Shown: positions 2,262 to 41,662 of the stretch, piece after piece
Numbering within the stretch: the first letter of the stretch is position 1
Layout of the letters: each line of letters begins with the position of its first letter
NCBI RefSeq assembly: GCF_017115105.1
Contig: NZ_JABXKH010000156.1
Coordinates: 1-48,000, forward strand
DNA: 48,000 bases
Direction of reading: 5' to 3'
Source of the DNA: Nostoc sp. NMS2
Lineage (GTDB): Bacteria > Cyanobacteriota > Cyanobacteriia > Cyanobacteriales > Nostocaceae
Made by a program: the position numbers and the translations under genes
Notes under the pieces: generated by a model
Databases searched by the model: none
What the model was told of the DNA's origin: nothing
What the model saw: only the letters and a program-made list of their open reading frames with translations

Positions 2262-2290
2262 TTCGTAAGAAAGGAATTCGGAACTTTGAG

Positions 2291-3127: not shown

Positions 3128-3756
3128 TCCAGGTGATGGTAGTTGCTACTTCCCCTGTAGTGCGGGCAGGGTTATCAGCTGTGGTGACTACCAATCCTCG
3201 GTTGACGGTTGTAGGGAGTGCATCCGATTTGGATGTATTGACAAGGGAAGTTGGGCAATTACAACCAGATGTGGTGCTGGTAGATTTAAGCGGTAATCTT
3301 CAACAATCAGTGTGGGAAAAATTGCTGGTCATTCAAGAAGATCAATACCCATTGGCAATGATTGTCATTGTTGAGGATCTCGACAGCATCGACTTAGAGA
3401 CGGCGTTACGTTCTGGTATCCGGGGGATATTGCCCAGTACTAGCACAGAGTCAGAAATTGTCGCTGCTGTGGAAGCGATCGCTTCTGGTTTGCTGGTGCT
3501 GCACCCGAATGCTGTAGAATTACTGTCTATTCGAGAAAAAGTAGTCACAAATCCTGTAAAAAGCCTGACACCACGGGAGATAGAAGTTTTAGTCATGCTG
3601 GGGTCAGGGTTGGGAAATAAAGCGATCGCTAAACGTTTACATATTTCTGAGCATACCGTCAAATTTCATCTCTCGTCCATTTTTCAAAAGCTCAGTGTCT
3701 CCAGCCGCACCGAGGCTGTTGCTTTGGGTATAAGACTGGGTTTGATTATGCTTTGA
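3124..3756 (+). CDS. LuxR/NarL-family response regulator with atypical (degenerate) receiver domain
   Basis: 210-aa ORF whose ATG overlaps the upstream stop (ATGA at 3124-3127). The C-terminal LTPREIEVLVMLGSGLGNKAIAKRLHISEHTVKFHLSSIFQKL is a LuxR-type HTH. In the N-terminal receiver-like fold the acidic pair is replaced (VVATSP) and the conserved Lys position reads GILPS, while the DVVLVDL Asp is kept. Confidence 0.85.
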   Translation: MIQVMVVATSPVVRAGLSAVVTTNPRLTVVGSASDLDVLTREVGQLQPDVVLVDLSGNLQQSVWEKLLVIQEDQYPLAMIVIVEDLDSIDLETALRSGIRGILPSTSTESEIVAAVEAIASGLLVLHPNAVELLSIREKVVTNPVKSLTPREIEVLVMLGSGLGNKAIAKRLHISEHTVKFHLSSIFQKLSVSSRTEAVALGIRLGLIML

Positions 3757-4296: not shown

Positions 4297-4968
4297 CTAA
4301 TACAAACACCCATCTTCCATATGAATAATGCGATCAGCAATATCAAGGATGCGGTTATCATGAGTGACTAGCAAGATTGCACAACCTTGGTTTTTTGCAA
4401 GTTGTTGCATCAATTCAACAACATCACGTCCACTATTTTTATCTAAAGAAGCAGTTGGTTCATCAGCAAGAACTACTCTCGGTTGACTAACCAAAGCCCT
4501 AGCGATCGCAACTCTTTGCTTTTGTCCTTCAGAAAGTTGTTCAGGATAGTAATTTATCCTGTGCATTAAGTGAACTACATCTAGTATTAACTCTGCTCTT
4601 TTATCTAGTTCGCGCTTAGAAAGATTATGATGCAAATTCAGGGACATCTGCACATTTTGAGAAGCTGTTAAAAATGGTACTAAATTATGTCTTTGAAAAA
4701 TATAACCAATTTGGCGACGTAATCGCAGAAGTTGTTTATCGCTAGCTCTATAAAGTTCACAGTCTAATACTTTAGCACTTCCTTCTTGAATTGACCTTAA
4801 ACCAGCAACTAAAGTCAATAAAGTTGTTTTTCCCGAACCAGAAGGCCCAGTCAAAATTACAATTTCACCCGGTTGCATTGTTAAATTAATATCAAATAAA
4901 ACTTGCTTACGTAATAAATGTTTACCAAAATAGTGATTAAGATTTTGAATTTTAATAACTGGTTGCAT
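4297..4968 (-). CDS. devA: DevA-family ABC transporter ATP-binding protein
   Basis: 223 aa with Walker A GPSGSGKTT, Walker B VVLADEPT and an H-loop LLVTHD. Overall it is close to Anabaena DevA as I recall it (NLNHYFG..LRKQVLFD...ILDIADRIIHMEDG). The signature motif reads LSEGQ instead of LSGGQ. Confidence 0.9.
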   Translation of the reverse strand: MQPVIKIQNLNHYFGKHLLRKQVLFDINLTMQPGEIVILTGPSGSGKTTLLTLVAGLRSIQEGSAKVLDCELYRASDKQLLRLRRQIGYIFQRHNLVPFLTASQNVQMSLNLHHNLSKRELDKRAELILDVVHLMHRINYYPEQLSEGQKQRVAIARALVSQPRVVLADEPTASLDKNSGRDVVELMQQLAKNQGCAILLVTHDNRILDIADRIIHMEDGCLY

Positions 4969-5024
4969 CTTTGTTATTTGTTATTTGTCATTTATCATGA
5001 TTTATTCTTCTAACTCCCTACTAA

Positions 5025-6197
5025 TTAGCGAAAGAGATCGGCAGGATCAGCTGAACGTAGTTTATTCATAGCTAGTAAGCCAGCGATTGAACACATTGTA
5101 GTTGTGAGTAGAAAGACAATTATGGCTCGACTCAAAGTCATAAACATGGGTAGACGAGTTGCATCTTGAACAAATTTATATAGATAAAGACATAGAGCAA
5201 ATCCAGGAATGTACCCCATCAATGACATTAAAACAGCTTGTTGAATGACAGTACTTACTAAATATAAATTAGAATATCCAATAGCTTTGAATGTTGCATA
5301 TATATATAGGTTGTCAGCAATTTGTGCATATAAAATTTGATAAACAATCACTCCACCAAAAACTAAACCTATAAGTGTACCTAAATTAAAAATAAATCCA
5401 ATTGGAGTGGAATTCTTCCAATGTTCTTTTTCCAGTTCCATGAATTTATTTAATGTAATTAACTTGACAGGAACAGCATCATTTTTGTCAGGGAATCTTT
5501 TGGAGAATTCTTCAATTACCTTTTCTGGTTGAATACCTGGAGCAAGTTTGACAACTCCAACAGCAACTTTTTCTAGCGGCACATTAAGTAATTGAGAGTA
5601 ATTTAAATCACTAGTAATGATCAGCCCATTTTGAGACATGACTCCTCCTCCTAATGAAAATAAACCAACAACATTGATTTTGTGATTTGATAATTCAGTA
5701 GTAATCAAACCTTTATTTTGAAAATCTGAAGCAATAGGGCCATATTCACCTCGTGATAATTTATCGAATAAAACCGTATCTGGTTTTTGTAAAGTATCTA
5801 ATAACTGATTCACATCTGGTAAATTTAAAACTGGTTGATCGGGTCTAAACGCGCAAACTCCTATAGTCTCTGTCACTGAAGTTTCAGGATTTTTAAATTT
5901 ACCATCGGCAAAATATAATGGGCTAGCTGATGCTACACCATTAATTCCTGAAATCATATATAAATAATTTCGAGGAAATTCTTTGATACCGAAAAAGTAG
6001 TTAGTGTCAGCATGAAGTAAAACTAAATCTGCTTGAATGGTTTTATGTATAGTTATTGCGTCTTCATATAGACCATCACGAAAAGCTAATTGTATGAACA
6101 TAAGAAATACTGCAAAAGTTACGCCCATTAGAGTGACTAATAAACGAGACTTTTGGTATGTTAGTTGTAGCCAAGCTATAGGTATTTTGGGAATCAT
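5025..6197 (-). CDS. devC: DevC-family ABC exporter permease (FtsX-like)
   Basis: 390 aa with an N-terminal TM, a large periplasmic loop and three C-terminal TM helices (FtsX-type). It sits between DevB-like and DevA-like genes, the conserved devBCA order. Confidence 0.85.
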   Translation of the reverse strand: MIPKIPIAWLQLTYQKSRLLVTLMGVTFAVFLMFIQLAFRDGLYEDAITIHKTIQADLVLLHADTNYFFGIKEFPRNYLYMISGINGVASASPLYFADGKFKNPETSVTETIGVCAFRPDQPVLNLPDVNQLLDTLQKPDTVLFDKLSRGEYGPIASDFQNKGLITTELSNHKINVVGLFSLGGGVMSQNGLIITSDLNYSQLLNVPLEKVAVGVVKLAPGIQPEKVIEEFSKRFPDKNDAVPVKLITLNKFMELEKEHWKNSTPIGFIFNLGTLIGLVFGGVIVYQILYAQIADNLYIYATFKAIGYSNLYLVSTVIQQAVLMSLMGYIPGFALCLYLYKFVQDATRLPMFMTLSRAIIVFLLTTTMCSIAGLLAMNKLRSADPADLFR

Positions 6198-6211
6198 TAT
6201 TAAATAAAAAT

Positions 6212-7459
6212 TTATGGATTGATATTAATTCTTACTTCAACTTGTAAGTTAATTAGTTTGGCTGCTTCCTCGGTATCCAATGAATTAAGACGAATTTTAA
6301 CTTCGACTACCCTAGCATCTATGTCTAGAGTTTTATCCCCGTTAAATACTTCTTTTTTCCCAACTTGTAAACCGATTTTCTCAACTTTGCCATTTAGCTT
6401 TTTAGACAATGAACTACTAGATATGGTAGCTTTATCTCCTATTTTTAGTTTACCAACTTCAGTTTCATAAACTTCAGCCATTACATACATATCTTTGGTT
6501 TGAGCTAAATCAACTATTCCCTTATCACTAATGCTTTCTCCAGCAAAAGTGTGAATTTTTAAAATTGTGCCATCTACAGGAGCATGGACATAAGCTAAAT
6601 CTAAATCTGCCTCTGCTTCAACTATGGCTGCTTTTGTTTGTTCATATTGAATTTGAGCAACTTGTACATCTTCTGGACGAACTTCTTTGAGCTTTTCTAG
6701 GTTGGCTTTACTCTCTAAAATCTGCTTGGGAGAAGTTGATAAAATTCTATTGAGATTAGCTTTTTCTTCATTGATTTGTTCTTGAAGAGTAGCAACATTT
6801 AAACGTTTACTATCAATTTCGGAAGCTGCGATCGCACCTGCTTTATATAGCTGCTCAAAACGTGAATATTCTGTTTGAGCGTTCTTCAATTCTGCATCTA
6901 AACGGGCAATTTTTGCTTTTTGAGTAGCTATTTCTCCCTGAGATTGGGCTTCTATATTAGCAATTTGTGCCTTCTGAGCAGAAATTTCTCCTTGTTTGGC
7001 ATCACCACTTTTTATTTTATCAAGCTCTGCTTGAGCAACTTTGGCTTTTAACTTAGCTTGTTGTAGAGCAGCTTGTAGTTTAGCTAAACTGTCTAAAATA
7101 GCAATTACCTGTCCACGCTTAACCTGATCTCCTTCTTTGATAAAAATCTTAGATACCCGCGCATATTGAAAAGACGAAGAACCGGAGAGGTTAATAATTT
7201 TATCCTTAGGTTGTATGCGTCCTAAAGCAGTAACACTTTCATTAACAACAGGTTTAGAGGTAGGAATTACTGTAGTAGCTTTCTGACTTTGCTTAGGAGA
7301 TTGAGAACTTAGAAAAATATAGAGTGGGAAAGCGATCGCAACTCCAATTACAGCCAAAAATAAGGGCACTGTCAAATTAAAGTTTATATGTTTTTTGAGC
7401 TTCATGTTCTGACTCTCATAAAAAGATTGCAGCTTTTCTAAATTCTTGGGCATGGCCAT
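6212..7459 (-). CDS. devB: DevB-family membrane fusion protein (HlyD-type) of the ABC exporter
   Basis: It has an N-terminal TM (VPLFLAVIGVAIAFPLYIF), a long coiled-coil (AALQQAKLKAKVAQAELDKIK...) and barrel/lipoyl-like segments. The track ORF starts at a TTG (7468). The ATG at 7459 lies 14 nt after an AGGAG, so it is preferred. Confidence 0.85.
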   Translation of the reverse strand: MAMPKNLEKLQSFYESQNMKLKKHINFNLTVPLFLAVIGVAIAFPLYIFLSSQSPKQSQKATTVIPTSKPVVNESVTALGRIQPKDKIINLSGSSSFQYARVSKIFIKEGDQVKRGQVIAILDSLAKLQAALQQAKLKAKVAQAELDKIKSGDAKQGEISAQKAQIANIEAQSQGEIATQKAKIARLDAELKNAQTEYSRFEQLYKAGAIAASEIDSKRLNVATLQEQINEEKANLNRILSTSPKQILESKANLEKLKEVRPEDVQVAQIQYEQTKAAIVEAEADLDLAYVHAPVDGTILKIHTFAGESISDKGIVDLAQTKDMYVMAEVYETEVGKLKIGDKATISSSSLSKKLNGKVEKIGLQVGKKEVFNGDKTLDIDARVVEVKIRLNSLDTEEAAKLINLQVEVRININP

Positions 7460-7542
7460 ATATTTCAATTACTCCTAATAACCGATACTAATTCGTAGTT
7501 CCTAATTAAGACATACTGCAAAATGTAGAATTAACGAACTTT

Positions 7543-7653
7543 GGGGGTTTAAGTCCCCTGTCTCTACAGACAGCGAGTTTTGGGTCGGGGTCTAAATCCC
7601 CGTCACAAAACTTAATTACGAATTACGAATTACGAATTACGAATTATTTAATT
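7543..7653 (+). repeat. Composite dispersed element: GGGGTTTAAGTCCCC hairpin + GTTTTG..GGGG..CCCC..CAAAAC hairpin + (AATTACG)x4 + AATTATTTAATT terminus
   Basis: Read directly from the sequence. A second copy in opposite orientation lies at 17000-17152. The shared terminus AATTATTTAATT (7642-7653) contains the sbnB-like stop codon and its last sense codon. Confidence 0.85.
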
Positions 7654-8673
7654 GCGTTGTAGCCAGGAAATAGGGAAAAATGATTGAATAATTGTTCCTT
7701 GATTTTCTTTAGTAGCTAAATCGTAGGCTAGCTTTCCTAAAGCTAAGTCAAGGATGCCTAATCCAAAAGGACTGAATACAGTAATTTTGTTATCTTGTCG
7801 TGGTTGAGCGACACCATTAAGAATACTGCCTATACTACATCTAATAAAATCTCGGTTATCTGTGAGTTGTTCAGCAAGATGAATAGATGTTTGAGCACGG
7901 CATACATGGTCTATATCATCAACAATATTGTCGGCTGATAAAATGAATTCTGGTGATAGATCTCGTAGAGATATATGCAAGATTATTTTATTAGCATTAC
8001 TATCTAAAGTATCGAATATATATGGTTTACTTGCTGTTGTGCCAAAAGATATTAAAGATGCAGCTTGTAAAACACTGCTGGGATCTTCCAGAATAAGAAT
8101 ATTTAAATGCTCACATAGCTGCTGACATTTAAGTTTGAATTGCTTTGCTCTAGCTAAACTTAAATCATGAATAAATAAGGTTTCTATTTCAGGGCGACTA
8201 GCTAAGAGAAAACGCAAGGTTTCAAAATTAATTAAACCACAGCCAATCATACCTACTTTAGTTAATGATTGCTCACCCTGCAAATGATCGGCCGCGATCG
8301 CAGCACTAGCAGCAGTACGTTTTGCACTAATCACAGAGCTTTCCATCATAGCTTGGGGACGGCCATTCTGTGTTGAATTTAAGATTAACACAGCTGAGGC
8401 TCGCTCCATATCCATAGCTAAATTGTCTGGAAAAGAAGCAATCCATTTGATGCCTGCTGCCTCAAACTCACCATCTAAATAAGCTGGTAAAGCAATAATT
8501 CTATTTTTAGTATTTTGTGGAAAACGCAAAAAGCTAGAATGAGGCAAGAAACTATTACCTTGTTCATAAGTTTGATAAGCAGATTTAATGATTTGCATTA
8601 TTTCCAAATCACGGTTTTGAAATAACGAGACAATTTCATCGCCTTTCAAAATAAGTATTTGATCATCGTTCAT
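7648..8673 (-). CDS. sbnB: SbnB-like NAD-dependent dehydrogenase (ornithine cyclodeaminase/mu-crystallin fold), second step of L-2,3-diaminopropionate synthesis
   Basis: 341 aa. The blocks GIKWIASFPDN...MERASAVLILNS...MESSVISAKRTAASAAIAA and the Rossmann motif GMIGCGLI match S. aureus SbnB as I recall it. It is adjacent to the SbnA-like gene. Confidence 0.8.
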   Translation of the reverse strand: MNDDQILILKGDEIVSLFQNRDLEIMQIIKSAYQTYEQGNSFLPHSSFLRFPQNTKNRIIALPAYLDGEFEAAGIKWIASFPDNLAMDMERASAVLILNSTQNGRPQAMMESSVISAKRTAASAAIAADHLQGEQSLTKVGMIGCGLINFETLRFLLASRPEIETLFIHDLSLARAKQFKLKCQQLCEHLNILILEDPSSVLQAASLISFGTTASKPYIFDTLDSNANKIILHISLRDLSPEFILSADNIVDDIDHVCRAQTSIHLAEQLTDNRDFIRCSIGSILNGVAQPRQDNKITVFSPFGLGILDLALGKLAYDLATKENQGTIIQSFFPISWLQRN

Positions 8674-8736
8674 ACGAAAAACCTCTGTTGTGTAGTAAAT
8701 AGAAAATACCTAAAAAATGAAGATTTTGCAGATAAT

Positions 8737-20100: not shown

Positions 20101-21884
20101 TCTATCGGCCATTTGGGGTCCATTGGCACAAAAGCAGCACCAGCTTTCATAATGGCTAGATGAGAAAGCAGCAACTCTAGACTTTTTTCCATTAACACGG
20201 GCACAAATTGGCCTCGGTTAATTCCCTTTGCTTGCAGTAAAGATGCTAACTGGTTGGCTTTATGATTAACTTCTGAGTATGTGAGTGTTTTGTTTTCAAA
20301 GACAGCAGCAGTGCGCTTTGGAGTTTTCTCCACCTGAGCTTCAATCAATTGATGAATGCATTTGTCTTGGGGATACTCTTTATAAGTATTATTCCACTCT
20401 ACTAGTAATTGTTGGCGTTCCGATGCTGTCAGTATGGGTAATGCAGAAATTTGCTGCTGGGGATTAGCTACAACCCCTTTTAACAAGGTGTAGAAATGTC
20501 CAACCATGCGTTTAATAGTGGCAGCATCGAACAAGTCTGTATTGTATTCCCATGCCCCTATTAATTCTTGCTCTGTTTCTTCAATTGATAGACTCAAATC
20601 AAAATTGGCTGTGACATTCTCCATTTCTAAACTGAGGCTCAATCCAGCTAGTTCTAGTTGCGGTTGTGGTGTATTCTGCAAAACGAACATCACTTGAAAG
20701 AGCGGGTTATAACTCAAACTTCTTTCTGGATGTAATTCCTCTACGAGTTTTTCAAAAGGAACATCTTGATGAGTATATGCATCTAAAGCAACCTGCCGGA
20801 CTCGATGGAGTAACTCAGAGAAACTTGGTTCGCCTTGCAAGTCCACACGCAGCAACAAAGTATTGACAAAAAAGCCAATTAATGGCTCGATTTCCCTACG
20901 GTTACGGTTAGCAATTGGAGAACCAACGACAATATCTGACTGATTGCTGTAACGTGAGAGTAAAGTTGCAAAGGCTGTTAACAAAGTCATAAACAGAGTT
21001 GCCCCTGACTGTCTGCTTAGATCCTTAAGTTTCTTCGTCAAATCGGGGTTAATCTGAAAACGTTCGACATCACCTCGGAAAGACTGAATATTCGGGCGGG
21101 GGCGATCGCTAGGCAGAGATAATAAAGCAGGTATCCCAGCTAATTGTTGCTTCCAGTAATTGAGTCCTTTTTCTAATAGTTCACCTTGTAACCACTGTCG
21201 TTGCCAGTGAGCAAAGTCAGCATACTGAATGGGTAATGCCGCTAAAGGCGAAGGTGTTCCCATCACCAAGGCTTCGTAGAGACTAGTCATCTCCCGGAAA
21301 AATATTTCTATCGACCAGCCATCAGAAATAATGTGGTGTATCGTTACCAGCAGTACATGTTCCTCTTGACTCAACTTGAGTAAGGTGATTCGCAATAAAG
21401 AGTCATAAGCCAAATCAAACGGTTTATCTGCTTCTGCTTTCGCCAACCGTTTTATCTCAGCTGACTTTTCTGCTACTGTTAACGTCTGCAAATCCACTAC
21501 AGGTAAAGTCACAGTTAAAGTTGGAGCTATGACTTGCACAGCAGTGCCATTCACCGTCTGAAAATTGGTGCGTAAAACCTCATGACGTTGGACAATTGCC
21601 GCAATCGCCCCTTCGAGTGCAGCCACTTGCAAACAACCAATCAACCGCACTGCCGCAGCCATGTTGTAATTAGCACTCCCATCTTCTAACTCATCCAAAA
21701 ACCACAAACGTTGTTGAGCAAAGGATAAAGGAATTGTCTCATCTCTGGAGATTGTGGCGATCGATGAAAATTGGTCTATCTTGCCTGTGGAAAAAGTTTG
21801 TTTCTTCTGTGTTTTTAGCTTCTGAAGTAAAAGTTCGCGCTTTTCTATAGAAAGATTTTCCAGACGTTTATGCAAATCAGTCAT
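17163..21884 (-). CDS. NRPS module C-A-T-E (incorporates and epimerises residue 2)
   Basis: 1573 aa. C is ~20415-21737 (HHIISDGWS). A is ~18855-20387 (FTSGSTGKPKG, NAYGPTE, YKTGDLVRY, PNGKIDWRAL). T is ~18600-18812 (FFELGGDSILS). E is ~17250-18587 (PLTPIQQWFF, HHLAVDGVSWRIL, EGHGRE). It has helical N- and C-terminal docking-like tails. Confidence 0.95.
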   Translation of the reverse strand: MTDLHKRLENLSIEKRELLLQKLKTQKKQTFSTGKIDQFSSIATISRDETIPLSFAQQRLWFLDELEDGSANYNMAAAVRLIGCLQVAALEGAIAAIVQRHEVLRTNFQTVNGTAVQVIAPTLTVTLPVVDLQTLTVAEKSAEIKRLAKAEADKPFDLAYDSLLRITLLKLSQEEHVLLVTIHHIISDGWSIEIFFREMTSLYEALVMGTPSPLAALPIQYADFAHWQRQWLQGELLEKGLNYWKQQLAGIPALLSLPSDRPRPNIQSFRGDVERFQINPDLTKKLKDLSRQSGATLFMTLLTAFATLLSRYSNQSDIVVGSPIANRNRREIEPLIGFFVNTLLLRVDLQGEPSFSELLHRVRQVALDAYTHQDVPFEKLVEELHPERSLSYNPLFQVMFVLQNTPQPQLELAGLSLSLEMENVTANFDLSLSIEETEQELIGAWEYNTDLFDAATIKRMVGHFYTLLKGVVANPQQQISALPILTASERQQLLVEWNNTYKEYPQDKCIHQLIEAQVEKTPKRTAAVFENKTLTYSEVNHKANQLASLLQAKGINRGQFVPVLMEKSLELLLSHLAIMKAGAAFVPMDPKWPIERIKEILHELNTKVVLVSQDKPHWEALAEWSCIVVDEQQLTEATPNLNVAINLDDPIYAIFTSGSTGKPKGAINQHRGIVNRFFNMNDRYGSQEDDVILFTSNFIFDSCVWQLYWPLINGARTVIPAPSFGLDLPQIIAIVEKQKVTITDFVPSVFNILLDYLVENPQLRCHLHSLRQLVVGGEAMSAKAIYQFKSYFPSISISNAYGPTETSIGVIFNEVSPTFTEPIPIGKPLHNVYALILDQHLNPVPIGVPGELYLGGQCVGLGYLNNETATRKVFIPNPFAEINSKLLYKTGDLVRYLPDGTIDFLGRIDNQVKIRGIRIELGEIEAILAQHPEVRRTVVIAREDHPTEKRLVAYVIPNHEQATAQELRRFLREKLPEYMIPSTFVVLDSFPLTPNGKIDWRALPVPDSSITGLEANFVAPRTTTEATLAKIWADVLGQEQVGIHDNFFELGGDSILSIQVVARTNQAGFSVTPKLLFQHQTIAELATVVSTTLKVQAEQGVVTGQVPLTPIQQWFFAQNQPELHHYNQSVLVEVLPLNPELLKQAVQQLLMHHDALRLRFTGANGWQQVNAGVDETVPFTVADLSGLTDEKQRSLLEATANELQASLNLADGPIIRVALFKLGNEKPSRLLIVIHHLAVDGVSWRILLEDLATAYQQLSQGEPIQLPAKTTAFKDWASRLIEYGRSQTVASEWDYWLAQSSTVAPLPIDYPLTKTANTVAFAAQVSVSLSIEQTQALLHDVPAVYNTQINDVLLTALLQTFCQWTGEPSLLIDLEGHGREELFEDVDLSRTVGWFTTVFPIQLQLGETEHLGELLKSVKEQLRYLPNRGIGYGILRYLSQDTVKQSQLAALPQAEVCFNYLGQFDQAISKSPLLRIAQESSGENYTPWRNRNYQLEIDGFVELGKLQLNLTYSKNVYQQSTIEHLAQTFIKTLTDIITHCQSPQAGGFTPSDFPEAQLNQQELDDLVAQLNLD

Positions 21885-22065
21885 AATAAGATTTTTCCTA
21901 AAATGATTTCAGAAAAATGGATGGGGGGAGGACTGTTTATTCAACAGTTAATAGTCTAGGGCTTATGCAAGAATTCTTTTTTTTGTCTCACGCAAAGGCG
22001 CAAAGACGCAAAGAAGAGTAAGAAAAGTAACAAAATAACAGGTCTAGTCCATCAGTCAACAGTCA

Positions 22066-25000
22066 TCACTCAGCCAATAATTGCCTCACTTCTTCATCCG
22101 ATAACTCGTCAATTTCAGTCAAAAGTTGCTCTAGCATATTAGTTTCTGCTTGTTCAATCTGTTGAGCAGTCAACAATTCAGCTAACTCAGCAATGGTAGG
22201 ACTTTCAAATAAGTAACGCAGAGGTAACTCAATAGAGAAGGCTTCGCGCAGCCGAGAAATAAGTTGAGTGGCTAATAAGGAATGTCCTCCCATTTCAAAG
22301 AAGTCATCGTGAATGCCAACTTTTTCTAGTTCTAAAACCTCAGCCCAAATGTCAGCCAAAATCTCTTCTGTAGGAGTGCGAGGTGCAACAAAGTTATTTT
22401 CAAGGCAGATTTGAGATGGATCTGGGGCTGGTAGGGCCCAGCGGTTGATTTTGCCGTTAGGTGTCAGGGGTAGAACATCCAGTTGCACGAAAGCATAAGG
22501 AATCATGTAATCGGGCAACTTTTCTTTGAGCAGCTGGCGCAGTTCATTAGAGGTGAGTGCTGATTGCTGGAAAACAACATAGGCTACAAGACGCTTGTTT
22601 CCTGGTTGATCTTCTCGAACTAAGATCACAGCTTGGAGAATTGCAGGGTGCTGGGTCAATATAGATTCAATTTCTCCTAGTTCAATGCGGAAACCACGAA
22701 TCTTGACTTGATGATCGAGACGTCCTAAGAACTCAATGTTGCCATCATTCAGGTAGCGGGCGCGATCGCCTGTTTTATAAAGACGGGTGTCTAAAGTACA
22801 ATGATGGATGAATTTCTGTTCGGTCAATTCTGGTTGATTGAGGTAGCCACGAGCCAACCCCGCACCACTAATGTACAGTTCACCAGGAACGCCAATCGGA
22901 ACGGGTTGTAAGTTCTGGTCTAAGATGTAAATTTTTGTATTGGCAAACGGACGCCCAATCGGAACCAGTCCATCAGCAGACAAATTAATTGCAGCACTTT
23001 CAAAATATGAACTGTCGATGGTGGCTTCGCTCACTCCATAAGAATTAATCAAGCGAGTCTCTGCACCTAAAAACTTTTGAAATTGCTGATACTCCTGTAC
23101 ATACCAACTATCTGAACCTGCGATCAATAATTTCATAAAGCTCAGGTTTTGCTCTGTTTTCTCTAGGTACTGAATTAAGTTCCTAAGCACAGGTGGCACA
23201 AACTCGGCACAATCAACTTGCTGTTGTTGCAACAAGTTATATAGCTTTTCCGGTTCTAAAAGCCACTCTCGTGGACAGATGACTAGTTTTGCCCCAGAAC
23301 AAAGCGCACGCACCATGTCCCCAGAAAAAACATCAAAGGAGAAACTCGCCATTTGTAAATGACTGGTACACGAGGAGCGCAGATGATAAGCATCTTCCCA
23401 AGCCATATAGGCGTTAACCAAGTTGCGATGAGTTATCATCACTCCCTTCGGGTTACCAGTAGAACCAGAGGTGTAGATGATATATGCCAGGTTCTCTGCT
23501 GCTACTTCACTTACCGGATTTTGCTGACTTTGTTGAGAGATTGTTTGCCAGTCTGTATCTAAGCAGATGACATCAGCTCTGTGTTCAGGTAATTCCTTTA
23601 CCAATTTCTTTTGAGTCAATAGCACGGATACTTGTGCGTCATTTAACATGTAGGCTAGGCGTTCTTGGGGATAGTCTGGGTCTAAGGGTACGTAAGCCCC
23701 GCCTGCCTTAAGGATTCCTAGTAATCCCACAATCATCTCTAGGGAGCGCTCAACACAGATACCTACAGGAACTTCTGGTTTGACGCCTAGAGTTTGTAGA
23801 TAATGGGCTAACTGGTTAGCTCGATCATTTAACTCTCGGTAGGTAAGTTGTTGATTGTCAAATACTATTGCTACGGCTTCTGGTGTTTGCTTTGCCTGTT
23901 CTGCAATGATTTGATGGATGCACTGGTTATTGGGATAATCTACTTGAGTATGATTCCACTCGACTAACAACTGATGTCGCTCGGATGCGCTCAACAAGGG
24001 CAATTCTGAAATTCGCTGCTGTGGATGAGCAACAATTACCTTGAGCAAGGTTTGAAAATGTCCTAACAAGCGTTCAATTGTGGCAGCGTCGAATAAGTCG
24101 GTGCTGTAATCGCAGTCTAAGACAATCTCACCATTAATTTCGGTGGCGTTTAAATTCAGGTCGTAATCAACAGAACTAATGGGTTGCCAAAACAAATCTG
24201 TCTCGATTCCCAACATATTGACAGCCACAGGTCGTTCTAGGTTAAATGTGACTGTTACTAAAGGTGAACGGCTGAAGTCCCAACCTCCTCTGAGTTGATT
24301 GAGCAGTTTGGCAAAGGGATAATCATGGTGTTCGTAGGCTTCCAATAACAAACCCTTCAAATTATCCAGAAACTCAGAAAATTTTGCTTCTCCAACAACG
24401 CAACTTCTAATGGGCAATATGTGGGCACAATAGCCAACTAAGCGATCGCTACCCTCCAGAGAGCGTCCAGCAGAAGGAATACCGACTACAAGGTCATCTT
24501 GGGTTGTGATGCGATGCAGTAAAATTGTATATACTGCCAGCAGCGTCATAAATAGAGTACAACCCTGCTCTTTATTTAATTTTTTCAGATCACGATACAG
24601 GTTCGCGTCGAGTCGTATAGTTTGCCTACTACCTTGATAAGTTTTAATTGCCGGACGAGAGCGATCGCTCGGCAAGTTTAAAACAGGAATTGACTGACCA
24701 AACTTTTCCAACCAGTAAGACTCATGGATTGCCATTGCTTCAGTCTGGCTTTGCTGCTCCTGCCACTCAATATATTCTCTAAATTGCATTGGTGGTTGGA
24801 GTTGACAAATCACTCCCTGATATGCTGCTGAATATAACTCGCCCATTTCTTGCAAAATCACACTCATTGACCAGCCATCAACGACAATATGATGAGCCGT
24901 TAAAACTAGCAAATGCAGTTGTTCTTTTAGTTTGAGGATATGAATACGGAACAGTGGACCTTGGCTCAAGTCTAAAGGTACTTGGCTATCTTTCTTAAAC

Positions 25001-28000
25001 CACTCAGCTACTCTAGACTCGCGTTCATAACTATCTACATCTGAAAAATCAATCAAAGGAACGTCTATCTTCAAAAACGGTAGAATGTGCTGAAACTCAC
25101 CTTGATTATCAATAACTGTCCGTATGGCTTCATGGCGGTCTACAACTTTTTGTACTGCTTGATGCATTGCCGCTAGACTAAACATCCCCCGCAATTGCAG
25201 ACTCAAGGAAACGTTATATGCTAGAGAACCATCATCCCCGATCTGCGTCAAAATCCAGAGTTGCTTTTGAGCTTCTGTAAGAGGAACTATTTGTGTGTCT
25301 TTTGCTGCTTCAAATGAATGCTGACTGCTGACTGATGACTGCTGCCTCACCTCGACTGCGCTCGGCGACCACCTGCCTTCTGCCTCCTGCCTCCGGTCAC
25401 TGAGCGTAGCCGAAGTGCTGCCTTTCACCTCGACTGCGCTCGGCGACCACCTGCCTTCTGCCTCCTGCCTCCTAAGTAAAAATCCTCCTTTTCGTAACTC
25501 CTCGACGCTATCTTGAATTGCTTGAATCACATAATCAATATCTGCATCTGTGTGGGCTGTGGAAAGGAAACATGTGCGTCCTTCCCAAATGTAGACTCCT
25601 TTTTCGATGAGGTGATAAAACAACAAATCCAGTTCTAAAGGCTGGTACAAATAGCTGGAATTACCTGATAATACAAAACGGAAGAATGAGCTAAAGTGTA
25701 CTACCTTGATTGGCACATCCTCTTGTGCAAAATAAGCATTGAGTGTTGTGGTCAACTGTGATGTGCGCTGATTTAACTCTTGTTGTAGTGTCGCTCCTTC
25801 CGTTATGAGATGGTTGAGTACAGCTTGTGCGGCTGCCATCGTTAGAGGATGTTTGGAAAATGTACCTGCAAAAAACGTTGTTGCGGTTTGGGGATATGAC
25901 TCATCTCCATAGTTCCACATGCCACCGTCAATACTATCCATGTATGCAGCCTTGCCAGCAACAACGCCAATCGGCATTCCACCACCGATGAGTTTGCCAT
26001 AGGTGACTATATCTGCATTAATGCCAAACCATGCTTGTGCACCACCAGGATGAATGCGGAAGCCAGTAATAACTTCATCGAAAATTAACACTGTACCTGC
26101 TGCTTGCGTTAACTGTCTAAGTTCATGAAGAAAGGTTTTTGGCTGTAAATCTGGTCTGCGACTGGGTACAGGCTCGACTAAAACAGCAGCTAATTCATGA
26201 GCAAAAGCTTTGATGATTTCGAGAGATTCCGGCTCACCATAGGGGAGAATCAGAACATCATCAACTACATTTTGCGTTACTCCTAAAGCCATCGGAACAG
26301 ACTGGCGCTTACCATCGATAGTTCTGGCTATAGCTAAAGTGCCGTCAGAGTGTCCATGATAGGCATCTTGGAACATTACAATCTTGTCTCGACCTGTGAC
26401 GGCACGAGCCAAACGTAGAGCTGTCATCACGGCTTCTGTACCTGAGTTACAGAAGGTGACTCGCTCCATACCCGTCAATTTACAGATTAATGCTGCTACT
26501 TCACCTGCAAGTTTTGATTGGGGGCCGATTTGGATACCTTGCTGAAACTGCTTTTCTAAGGCTTCTGTGACGAAGGGAGTACGATGACCAAATAGATGTA
26601 CACCAAACCCCATAGAGATATCTATATACTCATTGCCATCGATATCCCAAATTCTAGAACCTAAAGAGCGATCGCCAACAATCGGATAGAGCATTTCTTT
26701 TGTTTCCAAACGGAACCCGGTTGATGATCTCCTGTCGGCAATCACTGGACGATAAGTTTGTGTTCTTTGCTTTGATTGTTGAGTACGGTTTGTATATCGT
26801 AAGATAAGTGCTTCTAGATGCTGCTGTTGCTGTACACTCAGTTCCCTAACTTTCGGCGCTTCTACTTTAAACAAAGCCTGAGATTTTTGTCTAGCAGTAT
26901 CAGAATGAACGAGCGGTACGTTTGTGGGATGAGCTAACGCAGATAGTTTGTTGCTTGATGATAAGCCATTGCTACGCAAGACATCTAATTGCTGAGACAT
27001 CACCTGAAGTTGCTGCATCATAATTTTTTCTAGTGCAGTTTCAGGTATATTTTGCTCCTGCCTTCCATTTTGTCTATCCTGCACTTCCGGCTCAGGTGAG
27101 GAATCTGTCACAGCCCATTCTGATGAGAGATTCTTGTCTAGGTAGAGTGCTAATGCCTCGATGGTTGTTAACTCTTCAAATAACTGGCGAATGGTAATTT
27201 TAATCGCGTAAGTGTTTTCAATGTTTCGTATAGCATCAATGAGAACAATTGAATCAGCTCCCATATCTAAAAAATGAGCATGAATCTTGACTTCAGACGG
27301 GGCTACCCGCAACAAATCTCCAACTATACAACGTAATTTAGAGACGATAGCATCCTGACGTTTTTGAGATGGTTGGACTCCATTCACACTAATTTTATTC
27401 TCTGCGATTAATAAGTTTTCTGCTTTTGGTAAAGAATGGCTAGTAAGTGAGGGTTGATTTTGTGAGTAGTCTTTATTAGATCCAATCGAGTTAAAATTCG
27501 CAGATGGTCCTACATGTAACAAGTCTTTGACATTGTGCTGTTTGATGGCCGAGTCTTCTGCAATCCAATAACGTTGTCGTTGGAAGGGATATGTGGGGAG
27601 TGACAGCAAATGTCGTGAGTAGTCTCGATCAAATCCAGTCCAGTTAACATCTATTCCCTGCACATAGATAGTAGATAAACTTGCTAACAACACCTGCCAA
27701 TCATCTTGTCCTTTTACTAAAGAAGGTAGCCAAGTTGCAGTTCCTTGCTGCTGACGTTTGCCCAAAGTTGAGAGAATAGGTTTTGAACCGATTTCTAAGA
27801 ATAGTTCGTAACCTTGTTCAAATAAAGTATTTATTCCTACCATAAATCTCACTGCCTCACAAGTATGGCGTCGCCAATAACTAGCATCTGGGATATAACC
27901 TGGCGGTAGCATCTGACCTGTGAGGTTGGAAATAATGGGAATACAAGGAGCTTGAAATTGGATGCGACTAGCTATATGTTGAAATTGATCTAGTATTGGC

Positions 28001-31000
28001 TGCATCAAGGGCGAGTGAAAGGCATGGGAGACTTTTAACCGTCTAGTTTCAATTCCTTCTGTTTCTAAGGCTGCAATGATTTTCTCTACTGACTGACGCA
28101 CACCGGAAATTACAATATTTTTCGGCGCATTAATAGCAGCGATCGCCACTTCTTGAGAATATGGTTGAATAATCGCTGCAATTCTGCCCTCATCGGCAAA
28201 TACAGCTACCATTTCCCCATTTTGGGGTAGTGTTTGGATGAGGCGCGCCCGCTCGGCAATTAACTTTAAACCATCTTCTAAACTGAAGACCCCAGCAACA
28301 CAAGCTGCAACATATTCACCCAAACTATGACCTACAACTACGTCTGGAACTATGCCCCAAGACTTCCATAACTGGAAGAGAGCATATTCTAGAGCGAATA
28401 AAGCAGGTTGAGTATAAGCTGTCTGATCTAGCAAAGAACTCTCTTGTGATGTAGGGTAGAGGACTGAGAGCAAAGGCTTTTCTAGATAGGGACGCAGAAT
28501 TTCATCACAGTAGTCGAGAGTTTGCCGGAAAGTGGGTTGAGTGTCGTAGAGTTGCCGTCCCATCTCAATATACTGGGAGCCTTGACCTGTGAATAGAAAT
28601 GCTATCTTCGGACGTTGTTTACTATCGAGTTGATTACTTACTAGTTTGCTAGTCTGTTTACCACTAGCAAAAGCATCTAATGTTTCTCGTAACTGTATTG
28701 TAGATTCAGCAGCGATCGCTAGTCGATGATCAAAATGCGATCGCCCGGTATTAGCTGTAAAGCAAATATCTGCAAGAGATGCTGCCGAATTACGTTCTAA
28801 GAATGTTTGATAACGCTGTACCAATTCCCGCAAAGCTGGCTTACTCTTAGCCGATAAAGTCAGAAGTTGCACAGGACGCTCGATTGCATCTATCTTTTGA
28901 ATTTTGAATTTTGAATTTTGAATTTCTAAGGGTGCTTCTTCCAAAATTACATGAGCGTTAGTACCTCCGAAACCAAATGAAGATATACTCGCTAACCGTT
29001 GTTGATGCTGTTGAGGCCATTTTTGGCGCTGAGTCGGAATTGATAATGGTGTGTTTGCTAAAGAAATATAAGGATTTAACTGCTTGAGATGCAAGTGCGG
29101 AGGAATTTCTCCATGTTGCAGAGATAGCACCACTTTAATTAAACCAGCAATACCAGCCGCCGCTTCTAAATGACCAATATTGGTCTTAACTGAACCAATG
29201 TAACAAAGCTGGTCTGGTGCTCGACCCTCCATCAATACTTCTTTTAAAGAATTTACCTCAATGGGGTCGCCTAAAGATGTGCCTGTGCCGTGAGTTTCTA
29301 CATAGTTAATTTGTGCTGGTTGCACCTTGGCGTTTTGGAGAGCCTGGCGGATGACTTGCTGTTGAGAAATGCCATTCGGTGCTGTTAATCCATTGCTGCG
29401 ACCATCTTGGTTAACCGCCGAGCCTCTAATCAAGGCAAGTATGTTATCTCCATCTTTTATGGCATCAGAGAAGCGTTTGAGCACAACTATTCCGCAACCC
29501 TCTCCCCGTACATAGCCATCGGCGCTAGAATCGAAGACTTTGCAGCGTCCATCTGCTGCCATCATTCGCGTTTGGGAGAAAGTAATAGTTAATTGGGGAG
29601 TCAGAATTAAATTTACTCCACCAGCTAAAGCTAATTGACACTCCCCTTGGCGTAAACTTTGGCAAGCCTGGTGAATTGCTACCAACGATGAGGAGCAGGC
29701 CGTGTCTACTACCCAGCTAGGACCTTGTAAGTCCAGCAAGTAGGATAAACGGTTAGCAGCAATACTTAAAGCGTTGCCAGTACCGTAGTAAGCATCAGTA
29801 CCAGCAGCATGATTAACTAGTAAGCGGGAGTAATCATAATTGCTAATACCAATAAATACTCCAGTTTGACTTTCTGCTAAGTGTGCTATCCGCCCGGCAT
29901 TCTCCAGAGCTTCCCAACTCACCTCTAGTAAAAGTCTTTGTTGAGGGTCCATAATCTCAGCTTCCCGTGGAGAAATCCCAAAAAACTGAGGGTCGAACTG
30001 ATCCACTTGTTCCAAAAAGCCACCCCAACGGGTGTTCATTTTACCAGGATGTGCTGGTGTTGGATCATAAAAAGTACTATTATCCCAACGTGATGAAGGC
30101 ACTTCTTGAATAGCATCAACCCCATCGCGCAAAAGCTGCCAGAAAGCCTCTGGATCTTTAGCACCTGGGAAACGGCAGCCAAGACCAATAATGGCGATCG
30201 CTTCAGTGGAAATGGGGAGTGGAGAAGAGATTTTCGTGCTTTCGTTGTGGACTAATAGATCATGATTGTCTAGCTTGGAAGTAGCTTCTACTCCTAAATG
30301 CTGGGCTATGTCTGTAATAGTGGGGTAATCGTAAAATATACTAGGAGCAAGCTGGCATCCCAAAAATTGCTGTAACTCACCAGAAAGCCTGACTGCTGCC
30401 AAAGAACCTAAACCATAGTCAGCTAATGGTTGGTGAATGTCTATCTGCTCTGGAACTACTTGCAGTTGCTGAGAAACCTTTGAGATTAACCAAGCTGCAA
30501 TCTCTTTTTGACTATGAGATTTATCTGAAGTAGCTGGTTGATGAGAATTTTTACTTTTGATAAACTTTGCTGACTGTGTAGTTGTTTGCACTTGTTGCAA
30601 CAATGATTTGACTTCTGTCTCTAAATGCCGGAATGTGGTTTTGTTTTGAGGATTAGCACACCAATCTGCAACTACATCTAAGCTGCCAGATAAAAACCCT
30701 TTCCTACAAGCGCTACGCTGAAGTTTACCACTGGAAGTTTTGGGCAGGCTAGCAGTCTTAAGCAGCAGTACCGCATAAACTTCTATATCGTGTTGTTGTG
30801 CTACTGCTTGACAAATTGCCTCAATTACCTGACTAGCGTTGAGCTTTCGCAGATAACTTCGTTCTACTTCTTGGACAATTACTAGCTTTTCTTGTCCCCC
30901 AATATCTACTGCAAATGCTGCTCCACAATTGGCTCTTAACGCTGGGTGAGACTGTTCTACAGTTTGCTCAATATCCTGGGGATAATGATTGCGACCTAAG

Positions 31001-32391
31001 ATGATGATTAGATCCTTTAATCGACCTGTGATAAATAGTTCACCATCTAGTAAAAATCCTAAATCTCCTGTACGCAGAAAAGGCCCTTCGCCGGTGTCTG
31101 CCAAATAAGCCTGAAATGTTTGCTCTGTTTGTTCTGATTGTTGCCAGTAACCCTGACTAACACTCGAACCTGACACCCAAATCTCCCCGACTTGATTGGG
31201 AACACACCGCGTTAGTGATTCTGGATGAGCGATCGCTATTTTTGTATCTAACCACGGATGTCCACAACCGACTAAATGTCTAGCATTGTGGTTGTCAAAA
31301 GAGGTCTTCACTACCCGATTTTGTTCGAGTGCATCTGCTTGAACTGCACAGTAAATTGGCTCGTCTTTGACTTTACCACCCGAAATCATCAGAGTAGATT
31401 CAGCCATACCATAACAAGGATAGAAGAAGTTAGGACAAAAACCGCAAGGCTGGAATGTGTCTGCAAACTGTTCTAACGTTTCTTTACGAACTGGTTCAGC
31501 ACCACTGTAAGCGCTGCACCAACTGCTTAAATCAAGGTTTTGTCGTTGTTCTGAGGTAGTACTTTTTACGCATAATTCATAACCAAAGTTCGGGCCGCCG
31601 CTGTGGGTAGCTTTGTAGCGCGAAATTGCCTGTAGCCATCTAATCGGTTGCTGAACAAAGGCTGTTGGTGGCATGACGACACCCAAGAAACCTGTATATA
31701 TGGGTTGCAGAATGCCGTCAATCAATCCCATATCATGAAAACTAGGTAACCACGTTACAGAAACGCTATCTGGTGTGAGTTCAAAGGCTTGTTTGATGTA
31801 CTCCAAATTGTGCAGTAAATTACCATGACTTACCATCACCCCTTTTGGCATTCCTGTAGAACCAGAGGTGTATTGCAGAAAAGCTAATGTATCTATGGTT
31901 AGTATTGGTTCTTGCCATGTACTCACCTGTTCGCTGGCCAGATTATCTGTTGTTAGCCACTTCATCCCTGCCAAGTCTAGATTTTCGGCAACGCGATCTT
32001 CTATGTTGGTCAATAGTTCTTTTGTAGTCAGAGTGATTGTTGCTTGAGCATCATTTATAATCGCCTGTAGCCTAGATATCTTCTGATTGCGTCGGGGAGG
32101 ATAAGCGGGAATTGCCACAACAGAGGCATACAAACATCCGAAGAAGGCAGCGATAAATTCTAGACTAGATGGATACAGCAGTAAGGCTCTGGAACCTGGA
32201 GTTACAAGAGATTTTAATTGAGTTGCAATCGCTTGAGCTTGTAAATCCAATTCTCGATAAGTCAAGCTTGAGCTTTCTGTTTCTCCATCTGCAAGAAAGG
32301 TAAAAGCTGTTTTATTGGGCTGGTGCAATGCTCTAAAGCGCAGCATATCTACAGGAGTAGAAAATTTAAAATCCCTTGAATAATCACTCAT
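22066..32391 (-). CDS. Hybrid megasynthase FAAL-ACP-KS-AT-ACP-aminotransferase-C-A-T (beta-amino fatty acid loading plus first amino acid)
   Basis: 3441 aa. FAAL is ~30637-32391 ([41 protein letters not shown]). ACP is ~30292-30519. KS is ~28927-30204 (DTACSSS with the Cys codon at 29695-29697, HGTGT, GHLE). AT is ~27712-28608 (GHSLGE, HAFHS). ACP is ~27127-27354 (GADSI). The class-III aminotransferase is ~25492-26754 (TYGKLIGGG). C is ~23992-25299 (HHIVVDGWS). A is ~22402-23964. T is ~22177-22389 (GGHSL). No KR, DH or ER motifs were seen. Confidence 0.95.
25348..25472. repeat. In-frame tandem duplication (two 47-bp copies, 78-bp period) of a dispersed-repeat sequence inside the megasynthase gene
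   Basis: CACCTCGACTGCGCTCGGCGACCACCTGCCTTCTGCCTCCTGCCTCC occurs at 25348-25394 and again at 25426-25472. It translates as [16 protein letters not shown]([10 protein letters not shown])[16 protein letters not shown] in the linker between the aminotransferase and C domains. Confidence 0.95.
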
Positions 32392-39678: not shown

Positions 39679-39754
39679 GTTCTTGTTTCCTGAAGTAATC
39701 AATTCCAGTCATAACCTAGCATGGGAAGACTAGTATAATGTAATTATCAATCAG

Positions 39755-40684: not shown

Positions 40685-40705
40685 AATTCCTAGTTTTAAT
40701 ACTTG

Positions 40706-41527: not shown

Positions 41528-41662
41528 GACAAATTGACACAAATAAAATAAACTACTTATTGAGACAATATTCTTAACTAAGAAACTGGACGGAAATAAA
41601 TTTAACAGCCCAGAGCCAAAAATCAATACCAATAGTACAACCGAATGACCAATGACCAATGA

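Follow-up and report, generated by a model that had tools for sequence, protein, structure and literature searches.

A putative starter-type condensation domain embedded in a predicted diaminopropionate module of an orphan lipopeptide gene cluster of Nostoc sp. NMS2

Introduction

What does a second condensation (C) domain do when it directly follows another, with no carrier domain between them, in the last module of a peptide assembly line? The question is raised by a gene cluster in the window, by which we mean the whole stretch of 48,000 nucleotides of Nostoc sp. NMS2 analysed here. Nine intact open reading frames (ORFs), all on the minus strand, occupy positions 4297-32391. By Pfam, the first encodes a protein of 3441 aa (22066-32391) with the order fatty acyl-AMP ligase (FAAL), acyl carrier protein (ACP), ketosynthase (KS), acyltransferase (AT), ACP, aminotransferase (AMT), C, adenylation (A) and thiolation (T). 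It is followed by a C-A-T-epimerization (E) non-ribosomal peptide synthetase (NRPS) of 1573 aa (17163-21884) and by a C-C*-A-T-thioesterase (TE) NRPS of 1797 aa (11458-16851), in which C* is the domain in question. The smaller genes match a major facilitator superfamily (MFS) transporter, a PALP enzyme, an OCD-family enzyme, an HlyD-like adaptor, an FtsX permease and an ABC ATPase.

An earlier, sequence-only reading of this DNA had described nine single-strand genes in this order. The ORFs are uninterrupted at the coordinates it gave, the Pfam domain orders agree and the NCBIfam models for SbnA, SbnB, DevB, DevC and DevA all score above their cutoffs. Catalytic motifs are intact in the KS, AT, E and TE domains and in C1, C2 and C3 (HHxxxDG in all three), C* has HQIIGDG for HHxxxDG, and all five carrier serines are present as judged by sequence motifs. 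An assembly artefact can be dismissed, as independent assemblies contain this locus too: metagenome-assembled genomes (MAGs) of both Nostoc sp. NMS1 and Nostoc sp. NMS2, metagenomes in ENA, and the strains DSM 114159, 114160 and 114167. Four Nostoc genomes besides that of NMS2 thus share the cluster. The literature and protein databases gave no characterised cluster, product or paper with the same combination (MIBiG was outside the scope of this search), and literature searches with the A-domain code strings, the Nostoc strain names and Dap-containing FAAL/AMT cyanobacterial lipopeptides (Dap, 2,3-diaminopropionate) returned nothing relevant. We predict that the locus is a functional orphan hybrid polyketide synthase (PKS)/NRPS lipopeptide cluster.

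Two adjacent condensation domains in the terminal module

In the 1797-aa protein, C3 (aa 9-444; 15520-16827), C* (aa 456-905; 14137-15486) and A3 (aa 914-1404; 12640-14112) are contiguous, with no T domain in between. T3 (aa 1435-1496, LGGHSL; 12364-12549; Pfam PP-binding) and the TE (aa 1520-1777, GHSFG; 11521-12294; Pfam Thioesterase, 110 bits) complete the module. These and all further cluster features given below lie on the minus strand. C3 was delimited by Pfam and by matches to solved structures, A3 by Pfam and extraction of its specificity code, and C* by its motif, its homologues and a structural model.

The two C domains differ in kind. C3 has the motifs LSPMQQGMLFH and HHLLLDG and is of the DCL type: it matches McyB at 494 bits and BacC, SrfA-C (289 bits) and TycB (259 bits) at about 259-314 bits, the last three being C domains downstream of E domains, compared with 111 bits for the LCL domain TycC6. 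It receives its chain from a module that ends in an E domain (aa 1100-1573 of the 1573-aa protein; 17166-18587), recognised as a second Pfam Condensation stretch with HHLAVDGVSW, EGHGRE and FNYLG. C2 at the front of that protein (aa 49-494; 20403-21740) is of the LCL type by Pfam and by its structural matches (299-410 bits; Txo2 410, TycC6 299, Txo1 also matched). Since C3 is DCL and C2 is LCL, the co-linear assembly order put forward earlier holds, as does the pairing of an E domain with a DCL-type C. The LSPMQQGMLFH motif and the terminal peptides quoted in support of that order are present in the translations; the N-terminal tail ahead of C2 reads MTDLHKRLENLSIEKRELLLQKLK.

Comparison with orthologous clusters separates the roles of the two domains. 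In the orthologue on contig L072, module 2 lacks E and the first C of the tandem is LCL-like; where E is present (the window, L071 and L073), it is DCL-type. The type of the first C therefore follows the configuration of the peptide that it receives, as would be expected of an elongating domain, and C* must do something else.

Public annotations disagree on the starts of these proteins (16804-16851; 17163-21884), giving 1797, 1781 or 1777 aa for the third NRPS and 1573 or 1580 aa for the second. The 1781-aa start cuts into the conserved LSPMQ motif, and the longer form of the third NRPS is therefore more plausible.

C* belongs to a conserved domain family

The second His of the HHxxxDG motif is usually taken as catalytic. 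In C* this residue is Gln, both in the window and in all cyanobacterial orthologues. A word-indexed search of 5.8 billion proteins gave 20 relatives of C*, and a scan of GTDB species representatives gave 66 C* loci from many phyla, almost all in MAGs; C* belongs to a deep-branching C-domain clade. Most family members have HHxxxD[G/A/N], and we dropped the idea that the family is non-catalytic for this reason. HQ was found only in the window lineage and in loci L019, L005-L007, L010, L021 and L037, and the other C-C* tandems of the family have HH.

At most of the 66 loci the domain stands at the N-terminus of an NRPS, in several cases with a standalone A domain and a carrier protein immediately upstream. 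The second context, directly after another C domain, is that of the window. Outside the cluster family, the domains most similar to C* (57-59% identity) are themselves of the HQ type and form the sole N-terminal C of complete C*-A-T-C-A-T-TE synthetases (L005-L007). Beside the closest homologues lie genes for a TypA GTPase, for unknown proteins and for a type II TE, none of them informative.

Across 61 family sequences, 45 positions are at least 90% conserved, and the window C* retains every one. Its identity to its orthologues (66-77%, the highest being to L072) matches that of C3, A3 and the TE. The domain is thus under purifying selection, with no sign of decay.

In sequence C* is remote from all solved C domains (at most 95 bits). 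The starter domain RzmA-Cs ranks second at 81 bits, and the same structure scores only 67 bits with C2 and 44 bits with C3. An AlphaFold (AF2) model of C* has a complete C fold (predicted local distance difference test 85.9, predicted template-modelling (TM) score 0.85). It superposes best on the solved lipoinitiation domains RzmA-Cs (TM-score 0.85/0.88, 2.8 Å) and CDA-C1 (0.84, 2.9 Å), by a small margin over other C domains (0.80-0.84). We infer that C* is an embedded chain-initiating (starter-type) condensation domain.

C* also differs from its surroundings in base composition. It has 34% GC, and its GC content at third codon positions (GC3) is 0.28, compared with 0.38-0.41 in the flanking domains. 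Low values are also seen in sbnA and sbnB (0.23-0.27) and in devBCA (0.20-0.23), against 0.33-0.44 for housekeeping genes and the remaining parts of the cluster. The dip at C* is kept in all three orthologues (0.31-0.32 compared with 0.40-0.43). As these share only 66-77% identity with the window domain, the dip is old, and a recent insertion was rejected.

Two further roles for C* were considered and set aside. Acquisition as a Dap-specific partner together with sbnAB was rejected as a general rule, since C* and sbnAB occur together in only one of the 66 loci (L013). An interface-domain or hydroxylase-recruiting function finds no hydroxylase in the window or in the close loci.

More distant N-terminal relatives form a separate group. 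About 20 loci besides L029, L031 and L032 (e.g. L031:1554-14155), from marine cyanobacteria and Bacteroidota, share a recurrent gene set of ornithine cyclodeaminase, acyl-CoA dehydrogenase, a standalone A domain, a small carrier protein, HupE/UreJ, a TonB-receptor-like protein and a phosphopantetheinyl transferase (PPTase), and their downstream A code is DLTKIGEVCK (Asn/Asp-like). In these distant members C* often comes straight after the standalone A domain, carrier protein, acyl-CoA dehydrogenase and ornithine cyclodeaminase, with HupE and TonB-receptor-like genes nearby. The set has the look of a metallophore pathway, so far uncharacterised, whose starter unit is of the Pro-to-pyrrole type.

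The tandem precedes A domains with cationic-type codes

Specificity (Stachelhaus) codes were extracted by alignment to GrsA-PheA, and the control gave the expected DAWTIAAICK. As a heuristic, a code was classed as cationic-type when an acidic residue occupied pocket position 239 or 278 of the A domain. Outside the window lineage, such a code follows the C-C* tandem at all ten loci. It was found in only two of the 68 other A domains of the same loci (Fisher p=5e-11 compared with the tandem) and after four of the 36 N-terminal C* domains (p=2.5e-7 compared with the tandem). Codes after the tandem include DIWEITADDK, DIWEITAVSK, DAENIGTVIK, DTEDIGTVVK, DAEDVGTVVK, DAWEFGTVDK, DVADIGEIGK and DVGDLITIDK.

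The tandem also occurs in minimal single-protein systems of the form [FadD-like acyl ligase-T]-C-(T)-C*-A-T, found in a deltaproteobacterial MAG and a Binatia MAG (L016:1670-8131 and L014:6755-13237) with the codes DAEDVGTVVK/DTEDIGTVVK. In L016 the order is [FadD-like acyl ligase-T]-C-C*-A-T.

A predicted diaminopropionate supply and the probable specificity of A3

In Staphylococcus aureus, SbnA and SbnB make L-Dap from O-phospho-L-serine and L-glutamate. The window has both genes side by side with a gap of 63 nt: sbnA (8737-9753), for the pyridoxal phosphate enzyme of the first step to L-Dap, scores 424.5 bits with TIGR03945 (cutoff 350), and sbnB (7648-8673), for the NAD-dependent dehydrogenase of the second, scores 404 bits with TIGR03944 (cutoff 327), both above the NCBIfam equivalog cutoffs. 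The cluster is therefore predicted to have its own, dedicated L-Dap supply, as the sequence-only reading had held. In PMC3179956, S. aureus SbnA and SbnB have an L-Dap precursor role for staphyloferrin B.

The code of A3, DIWEITADDK, is the best candidate for a Dap code. DIWE[IL]TADDK and sbnAB co-occur in the window and in L071-L073, and the Acidobacteriota MAG L013 has DIWEITA-type codes next to sbnAB. In L073 the only A domains on the sequenced stretch are one with a Ser code and one with DIWEITADDK, and sbnAB is present. A3 most probably loads the L-2,3-diaminopropionate that SbnA and SbnB would make.

Proposed assembly and alternative readings

The domain content, the integrity of the motifs, the DCL/LCL logic and the comparative associations are directly supported. 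Assembly on this basis might run as follows. The FAAL would activate a fatty acid and load ACP1, KS-AT(malonyl)-ACP2 would add two carbons, and the AMT would turn the β-keto group into a β-amine. C1-A1-T1 would then add a cationic, Orn-like residue, and C2-A2-T2-E would add and epimerise a second. The DCL-type C3 would couple the β-amino-acyl-X1-D-X2 chain to one amine of T3-bound Dap, and C* would acylate the other with a second acyl thioester, either an acyl-CoA or acyl-ACP from primary metabolism or the FAAL-loaded ACP1. The TE would release a branched polycationic lipopeptide, which DevBCA and the MFS pump would export. The part given to C* in this scheme is modelled on module 3 of the icosalide synthetase. 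Such a second acylation of Dap, leading to a cationic lipopeptide that is branched at Dap and acylated twice, is the outcome we favour, at somewhat short of an even chance, because the C* clade is usually chain-initiating, is under purifying selection and is tied to diamino-acid modules. For the same reasons the plain β-amino-acyl tripeptide predicted earlier is probably not the product. The assignment of Dap, the activity of C* and its donor, and the mode of release are our interpretation of the evidence above.

Several points weigh against this reading. The main caveat is the Gln that replaces the usual catalytic second His in C*. We found no donor for C*, and neither a carrier protein nor an acyl ligase is encoded as a separate gene in the cluster. 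The starter-type status of C* depends on genomic position, an N-terminal motif and small structural margins, in a domain with at most 95 bits to any solved C domain. The cationic-type code is a heuristic and the ten tandem loci are phylogenetically non-independent. Gene co-occurrence is what points to Dap rather than 2,4-diaminobutyrate (Dab) for DIWEITADDK, and the near-identical DIWELTADDK encodes Dab in the syringomycin/syringopeptin synthetases of Pseudomonas. One DIWEITA-type module of L013 has only a single C, and Dap incorporation itself therefore needs no C*. Finally, the doubly acylated product is a prediction from the genes.

The Gln and the want of a dedicated donor among the scanned window ORFs would both be expected if C* were catalytically silent, a spacer or a carrier-docking scaffold. 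The remaining domains suffice for a co-linear β-amino-fatty-acyl tripeptide (Orn-like, D-X, Dap), hydrolysed or macrolactamised by the TE. This is a possible explanation, albeit a doubtful one. A silent domain sits poorly with the strict conservation of HQII[GS]DG and of the 45 family-invariant positions, and C* evolves no faster than the neighbouring catalytic domains. In the L005-L007 synthetases an HQ-type C* is the only N-terminal C of an otherwise complete enzyme, and the embedded chain-initiating C domain (C_I) of the icosalide synthetase IcoA is active. A passive spacer would also leave unexplained the tight link between the tandem and cationic-type codes.

C* might instead be active in some other chemistry on Dap. 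It could add a second copy of the T2-bound chain (a 'gemini' dimer), form an isopeptide in place of the α-peptide bond, or promote closure of a cyclic amidine or imidazoline, in which the side-chain amine attacks the carbonyl before it. Minimal systems, L016 among them, have one upstream carrier and no other visible donor for their two C domains, and the window cluster likewise offers no separate one. The tandem is tied to residues with two amines, and the unusual Gln could reflect an altered mechanism. We consider such chemistry unlikely: no precedent for it was found in a domain of this clade, whose majority context is ordinary chain initiation from trans-acting donors, and C* is conserved whether the upstream residue is D (window) or L (L072), so that a peptidyl-donor site would have to tolerate both. 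A Dap-containing, siderophore-like metallophore, as suggested by sbnAB in staphyloferrin B, seems very improbable. SbnA and SbnB are best known from that siderophore pathway, the MFS pump is weakly similar to EntS, and distant C* loci have TonB-receptor-like and HupE genes; the review PMC9414260 reports that the authors of a genomic survey proposed such a role for 2,3-DAP in some cyanobacteria. Scans of the window, however, gave no TonB-dependent receptor, periplasmic binding protein, tailoring gene for hydroxamate, catechol or β-hydroxy-Asp, or NRPS-independent siderophore (NIS) synthetase, and the predicted polycationic lipopeptide scaffold has no obvious chelating groups.

Returning to second acylation of Dap by C*, the same idea may extend beyond Nostoc. 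The C-C* tandem could be a cross-phylum diamino-acid branching module that has so far gone unrecognised, in which two C domains acylate both amines of carrier-bound Dap, Dab, Orn or Lys; we put this forward tentatively, as a conjecture with rather more against it than for it.

A mosaic of a common loading region and a conserved back end

The third NRPS has four full-length relatives (68-70% identity), and for three of them the cyanobacterial metagenome contigs were compared (L071, L072 and L073). L071 has the full cluster with an additional type II TE and two-component system, its loading protein being 49% identical to that of the window. L072 has its MFS gene relocated after sbnB; a 27-aa MFS remnant (74% identity) at 15563-15643, directly after the NRPS stop, is the footprint of a local rearrangement. 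L073 has a single upstream amino-acid module (Ser code), and at L073:13545-18630 a class-I S-adenosylmethionine (SAM) methyltransferase and a Ser/Thr-dehydratase-like PALP enzyme lie next to sbnA/sbnB. The Acidobacteriota MAG L013 has ...E-C-C*-A-T, TE, MFS (51% identity), sbnA (65%) and sbnB (57%). The conserved unit is thus [C-C*-A(DIWE[IL]TA..K)-T-TE]-MFS-sbnA-sbnB, present in three cyanobacterial contigs and one Acidobacteriota MAG besides the window lineage. The sequence-only reading had named no described pathway that joins this loading logic to sbnAB, a C-C* terminal module and a DevBCA-type exporter. No characterised match was found, but the combination is not unique to this genome.

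The front end has a different distribution. Dozens of proteins from Nostoc, Brasilonema, Tolypothrix, Chloroflexota and Acidobacteriota are related to the loading region from FAAL to AMT, with 50-75% identity. Beyond the lineage of the cluster itself, the closest of them (75% identity) comes from a Peltigera cyanobiont, and the producers therefore appear to be related to lichen cyanobionts. The closest full-length relatives of the 3441-aa protein are 68% identical overall, with 79-85% in FAAL and KS and down to 51% in A1. They belong to a different Nostoc lipopeptide cluster (L074:9318-30750 and L075:3130-22405), which has two radical-SAM genes and an N-methyltransferase-containing terminal module, and neither C* nor sbnAB. 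We take this likeness as evidence of front-end/back-end recombination between lipopeptide clusters; the window cluster is a mosaic of a common loading region and a distinctive conserved back end.

The loading protein and modules 1 and 2

The FAAL of the 3441-aa protein (aa 1-590; 30622-32391; Pfam AMP-binding and AMP-dom_DIP2-like) has its best NCBIfam matches in fatty-acid--AMP ligase families (PRK05850 450 bits, FadD32 419 bits, both under the full-length cutoffs). It is followed by ACP1 (aa 623-697, serine in DYGLGSL; 30301-30525; Pfam ACP_SdgA_C/PP-binding), the KS (aa 730-1102; 29086-30204; Pfam ketoacyl-synt N and C, with DTACSS, HGTGT and NIGH), a malonyl-type AT (aa 1265-1581; 27649-28599; Pfam Acyl_transf_1, with GHSLGE and HAFH) and ACP2 (about aa 1685-1760, GADSI; 27112-27339; three Pfam PP-binding stretches). 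The integrated class-III AMT (aa 1903-2330; 25402-26685; Pfam Aminotran_3, 187 bits) precedes C1. A FAAL and ACP start, a single KS-AT-ACP extension with intact catalytic residues and an AMT are thus all present, in keeping with the loading logic of the iturin/puwainaphycin kind recognised earlier. The protein has no Pfam match to ketoreductase, dehydratase or enoylreductase domains, or to the luciferase-like monooxygenase domain PF00296 found in several relatives.

Module 1 consists of C1 (aa 2367-2809, HHIVVDG; 23965-25293; Pfam Condensation, 361 bits), A1 (aa 2830-3314; 22450-23904) and T1 (aa 3344-3407; 22171-22362; Pfam PP-binding), after which the protein ends in an acidic helical tail. 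A1 was found by Pfam and its extracted code, DVGELASIDK, is Orn-like and cationic, being close to the Orn code DVGEIGSIDK. In module 2, A2 (aa 515-997; 18894-20342; Pfam) has the extracted code DSWDVGAIGK, with an acidic D at pocket position 278 and an alignment gap at 331 settled by hand. T2 (aa 1027-1088, LGGDSI; 18621-18806; Pfam PP-binding) leads to the E domain.

Export genes, intergenic regions and neighbours

The two export systems proposed earlier differ in standing. The MFS efflux pump (10143-11456; Pfam MFS_1/MFS_3, with NCBIfam H+ antiporter, Mef-like and EntS-like matches) has orthologues of 51-62% identity in L071, L072 and L013 and is part of the conserved unit. By contrast, devB (6212-7468; TIGR02971, 331 bits, cutoff 129), devC (5025-6197; TIGR01185, 397 bits, cutoff 290) and devA (4297-4968; TIGR02982, 361 bits, cutoff 296) are a lineage-specific addition outside the conserved core: DevB and DevC of L071 are only 35% identical to those of the window, the two devBCA sets are not orthologous, and the L071 copies have a normal GC3. 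No TolC-like outer-membrane partner for DevBCA was found among the scanned window ORFs; its gene may lie elsewhere.

Only 1 nt separates the stop of the third NRPS from the MFS start, as first reported, and the remaining gaps within the cluster measure 14-389 nt. The gap of 389 nt is that between the MFS gene and sbnA, and two others measure 311 and 179 nt. Promoter/terminator and Rfam scans of these gaps were uninformative, giving no minus-strand terminator-like site and no Rfam match, and they leave co-transcription neither proven nor contradicted. As in the earlier reading, genes for a PPTase, an MbtH-like protein or a type II TE were not found in the window by Pfam and motif scans of the flanking ORFs.

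Beyond devA, on the plus strand at 1359-3756 and facing the devA end, two tandem HtrA-like trypsin-PDZ proteases overlap a NarL/GerE-type response regulator. The regulator is 27% identical to one inside the L071 cluster and probably unrelated to it; devBCA and this regulator were accordingly rejected as conserved members of the cluster, at 35% and 27% identity to their L071 counterparts. A CmcJ/NvfI-family oxidoreductase (148-996, plus strand; 320 bits, cutoff 80) lies 3.3 kb beyond devA, and a gene of this family is also found beside the cluster in Nostoc sp. NMS1 (L001). On the other side, a 261-aa ORF (33167-33952) showed no homology to the DUF3102-like genes upstream of related Nostoc clusters. 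Redox genes unrelated to the cluster are found at 38944-42148 (minus strand): a peroxiredoxin-glutaredoxin fusion, an alpha/beta hydrolase, an NAD-dependent epimerase-family protein and a glutathione peroxidase.

Implications

If the branching-module reading is true, the Nostoc product would be a Dap-branched, two-tailed cationic lipopeptide, a structural type unreported from cyanobacteria. A genome-mining rule would follow, by which a starter-type C located after an elongating C and before an acidic-pocket A signals a residue acylated on both amines. The rule would cover at least 12 uncharacterised synthetases in Cyanobacteria, Acidobacteriota, Binatia, deltaproteobacterial MAGs and others, and would add amide branching to the ester branching of icosalide, the one 'dual-priming' case validated so far. 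For cyanobacterial natural products, it would point to a small lipopeptide that is polycationic and may have two tails, plausibly of a membrane-active class.

The cluster further pins the rare cyanobacterial sbnAB pair to a concrete use in an NRPS, which bears on the debate over the origin of 2,3-DAP and β-N-methylamino-L-alanine (BMAA). BMAA is N-methyl-Dap. That this cluster family is the main genomic source of 2,3-Dap in symbiotic Nostoc, with the variants that have a methyltransferase beside sbnAB (L073) yielding peptide-bound N-methyl-Dap, is a long shot; were it true, the disputed cyanobacterial origin of BMAA would gain a testable locus.

Comparison with known systems

Every component class of the cluster is already known. 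DevBCA of the heterocyst glycolipid exporter is matched in the window by all three subunit models, but the window copy lies beside a lipopeptide cluster, has a deviant GC3 of 0.20-0.23 and is not conserved in the orthologous clusters. SbnA and SbnB are an adjacent pair as in staphyloferrin B biosynthesis; there they serve an NIS siderophore, whereas here they would serve an NRPS A domain in a cyanobacterial lipopeptide cluster.

MycA of the iturin/mycosubtilin type is not known to have an AT, and the puwainaphycin system has its FAAL and ACP as separate proteins. In contrast, the window protein fuses the loading functions with its own AT in 3441 aa, three amino acids follow, and a Dap supply and a tandem C are added. 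Some database relatives of the loading region are auto-named 'iturin family lipopeptide synthetase A'. The shared plan is a FAAL, one PKS extension, an integrated class-III aminotransferase and then NRPS modules, both in MycA and in the puwainaphycin system (PMC4219810). With microginin-type systems the cluster shares the plan of a short linear lipopeptide with an N-terminal β-amino fatty acid, and close loading-region relatives occur in Nostoc. Many relatives have the PF00296 monooxygenase domain, the feature responsible for 2-hydroxylation in microginin-type systems, which the window protein does not have.

The C-C* terminal module has both a proposed and a tested precedent. In the megapolipeptin synthetase, MgpC has a C-C-A-T module whose second C groups with starter C domains and has HHxxxDR as its active-site motif; its proposed role is the acylation of a free amine by a second acyl unit (PMC11411415). 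The tandem and a variant active-site motif are shared with the window, but the MgpC role is a proposal, the acceptor is Thr or a chain amine, and organism and scaffold differ. Module 3 of the icosalide synthetase IcoA from Burkholderia gladioli is C-C_I-A-PCP (PCP, peptidyl carrier protein); in vitro, the embedded C_I uses a 3-hydroxydecanoyl thioester to N-acylate Ser-S-PCP, and another nucleophile takes the upstream chain from the neighbouring elongating C, so that two acyl groups end up on one carrier-bound residue (Jenner et al. 2019, PMC6553374). The IcoA acceptor is thus Ser, with an ester to the hydroxy-acyl chain as second bond, whereas the predicted acceptor in the window is a diamino acid with two amines, and the embedded domain has HQxxxDG rather than the canonical HHxxxDG. 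What appears to be new, against this background of known tandem C/starter-C modules, is the recurrent cassette joining the tandem C to a Dap supply in cyanobacteria, the embedded HQ variant and the cross-phylum association of the tandem with diamino-acid modules. The module order is that of IcoA: an elongating C, directly after it a second C, which in the window is putatively of the chain-initiating type, then an A domain and a carrier.

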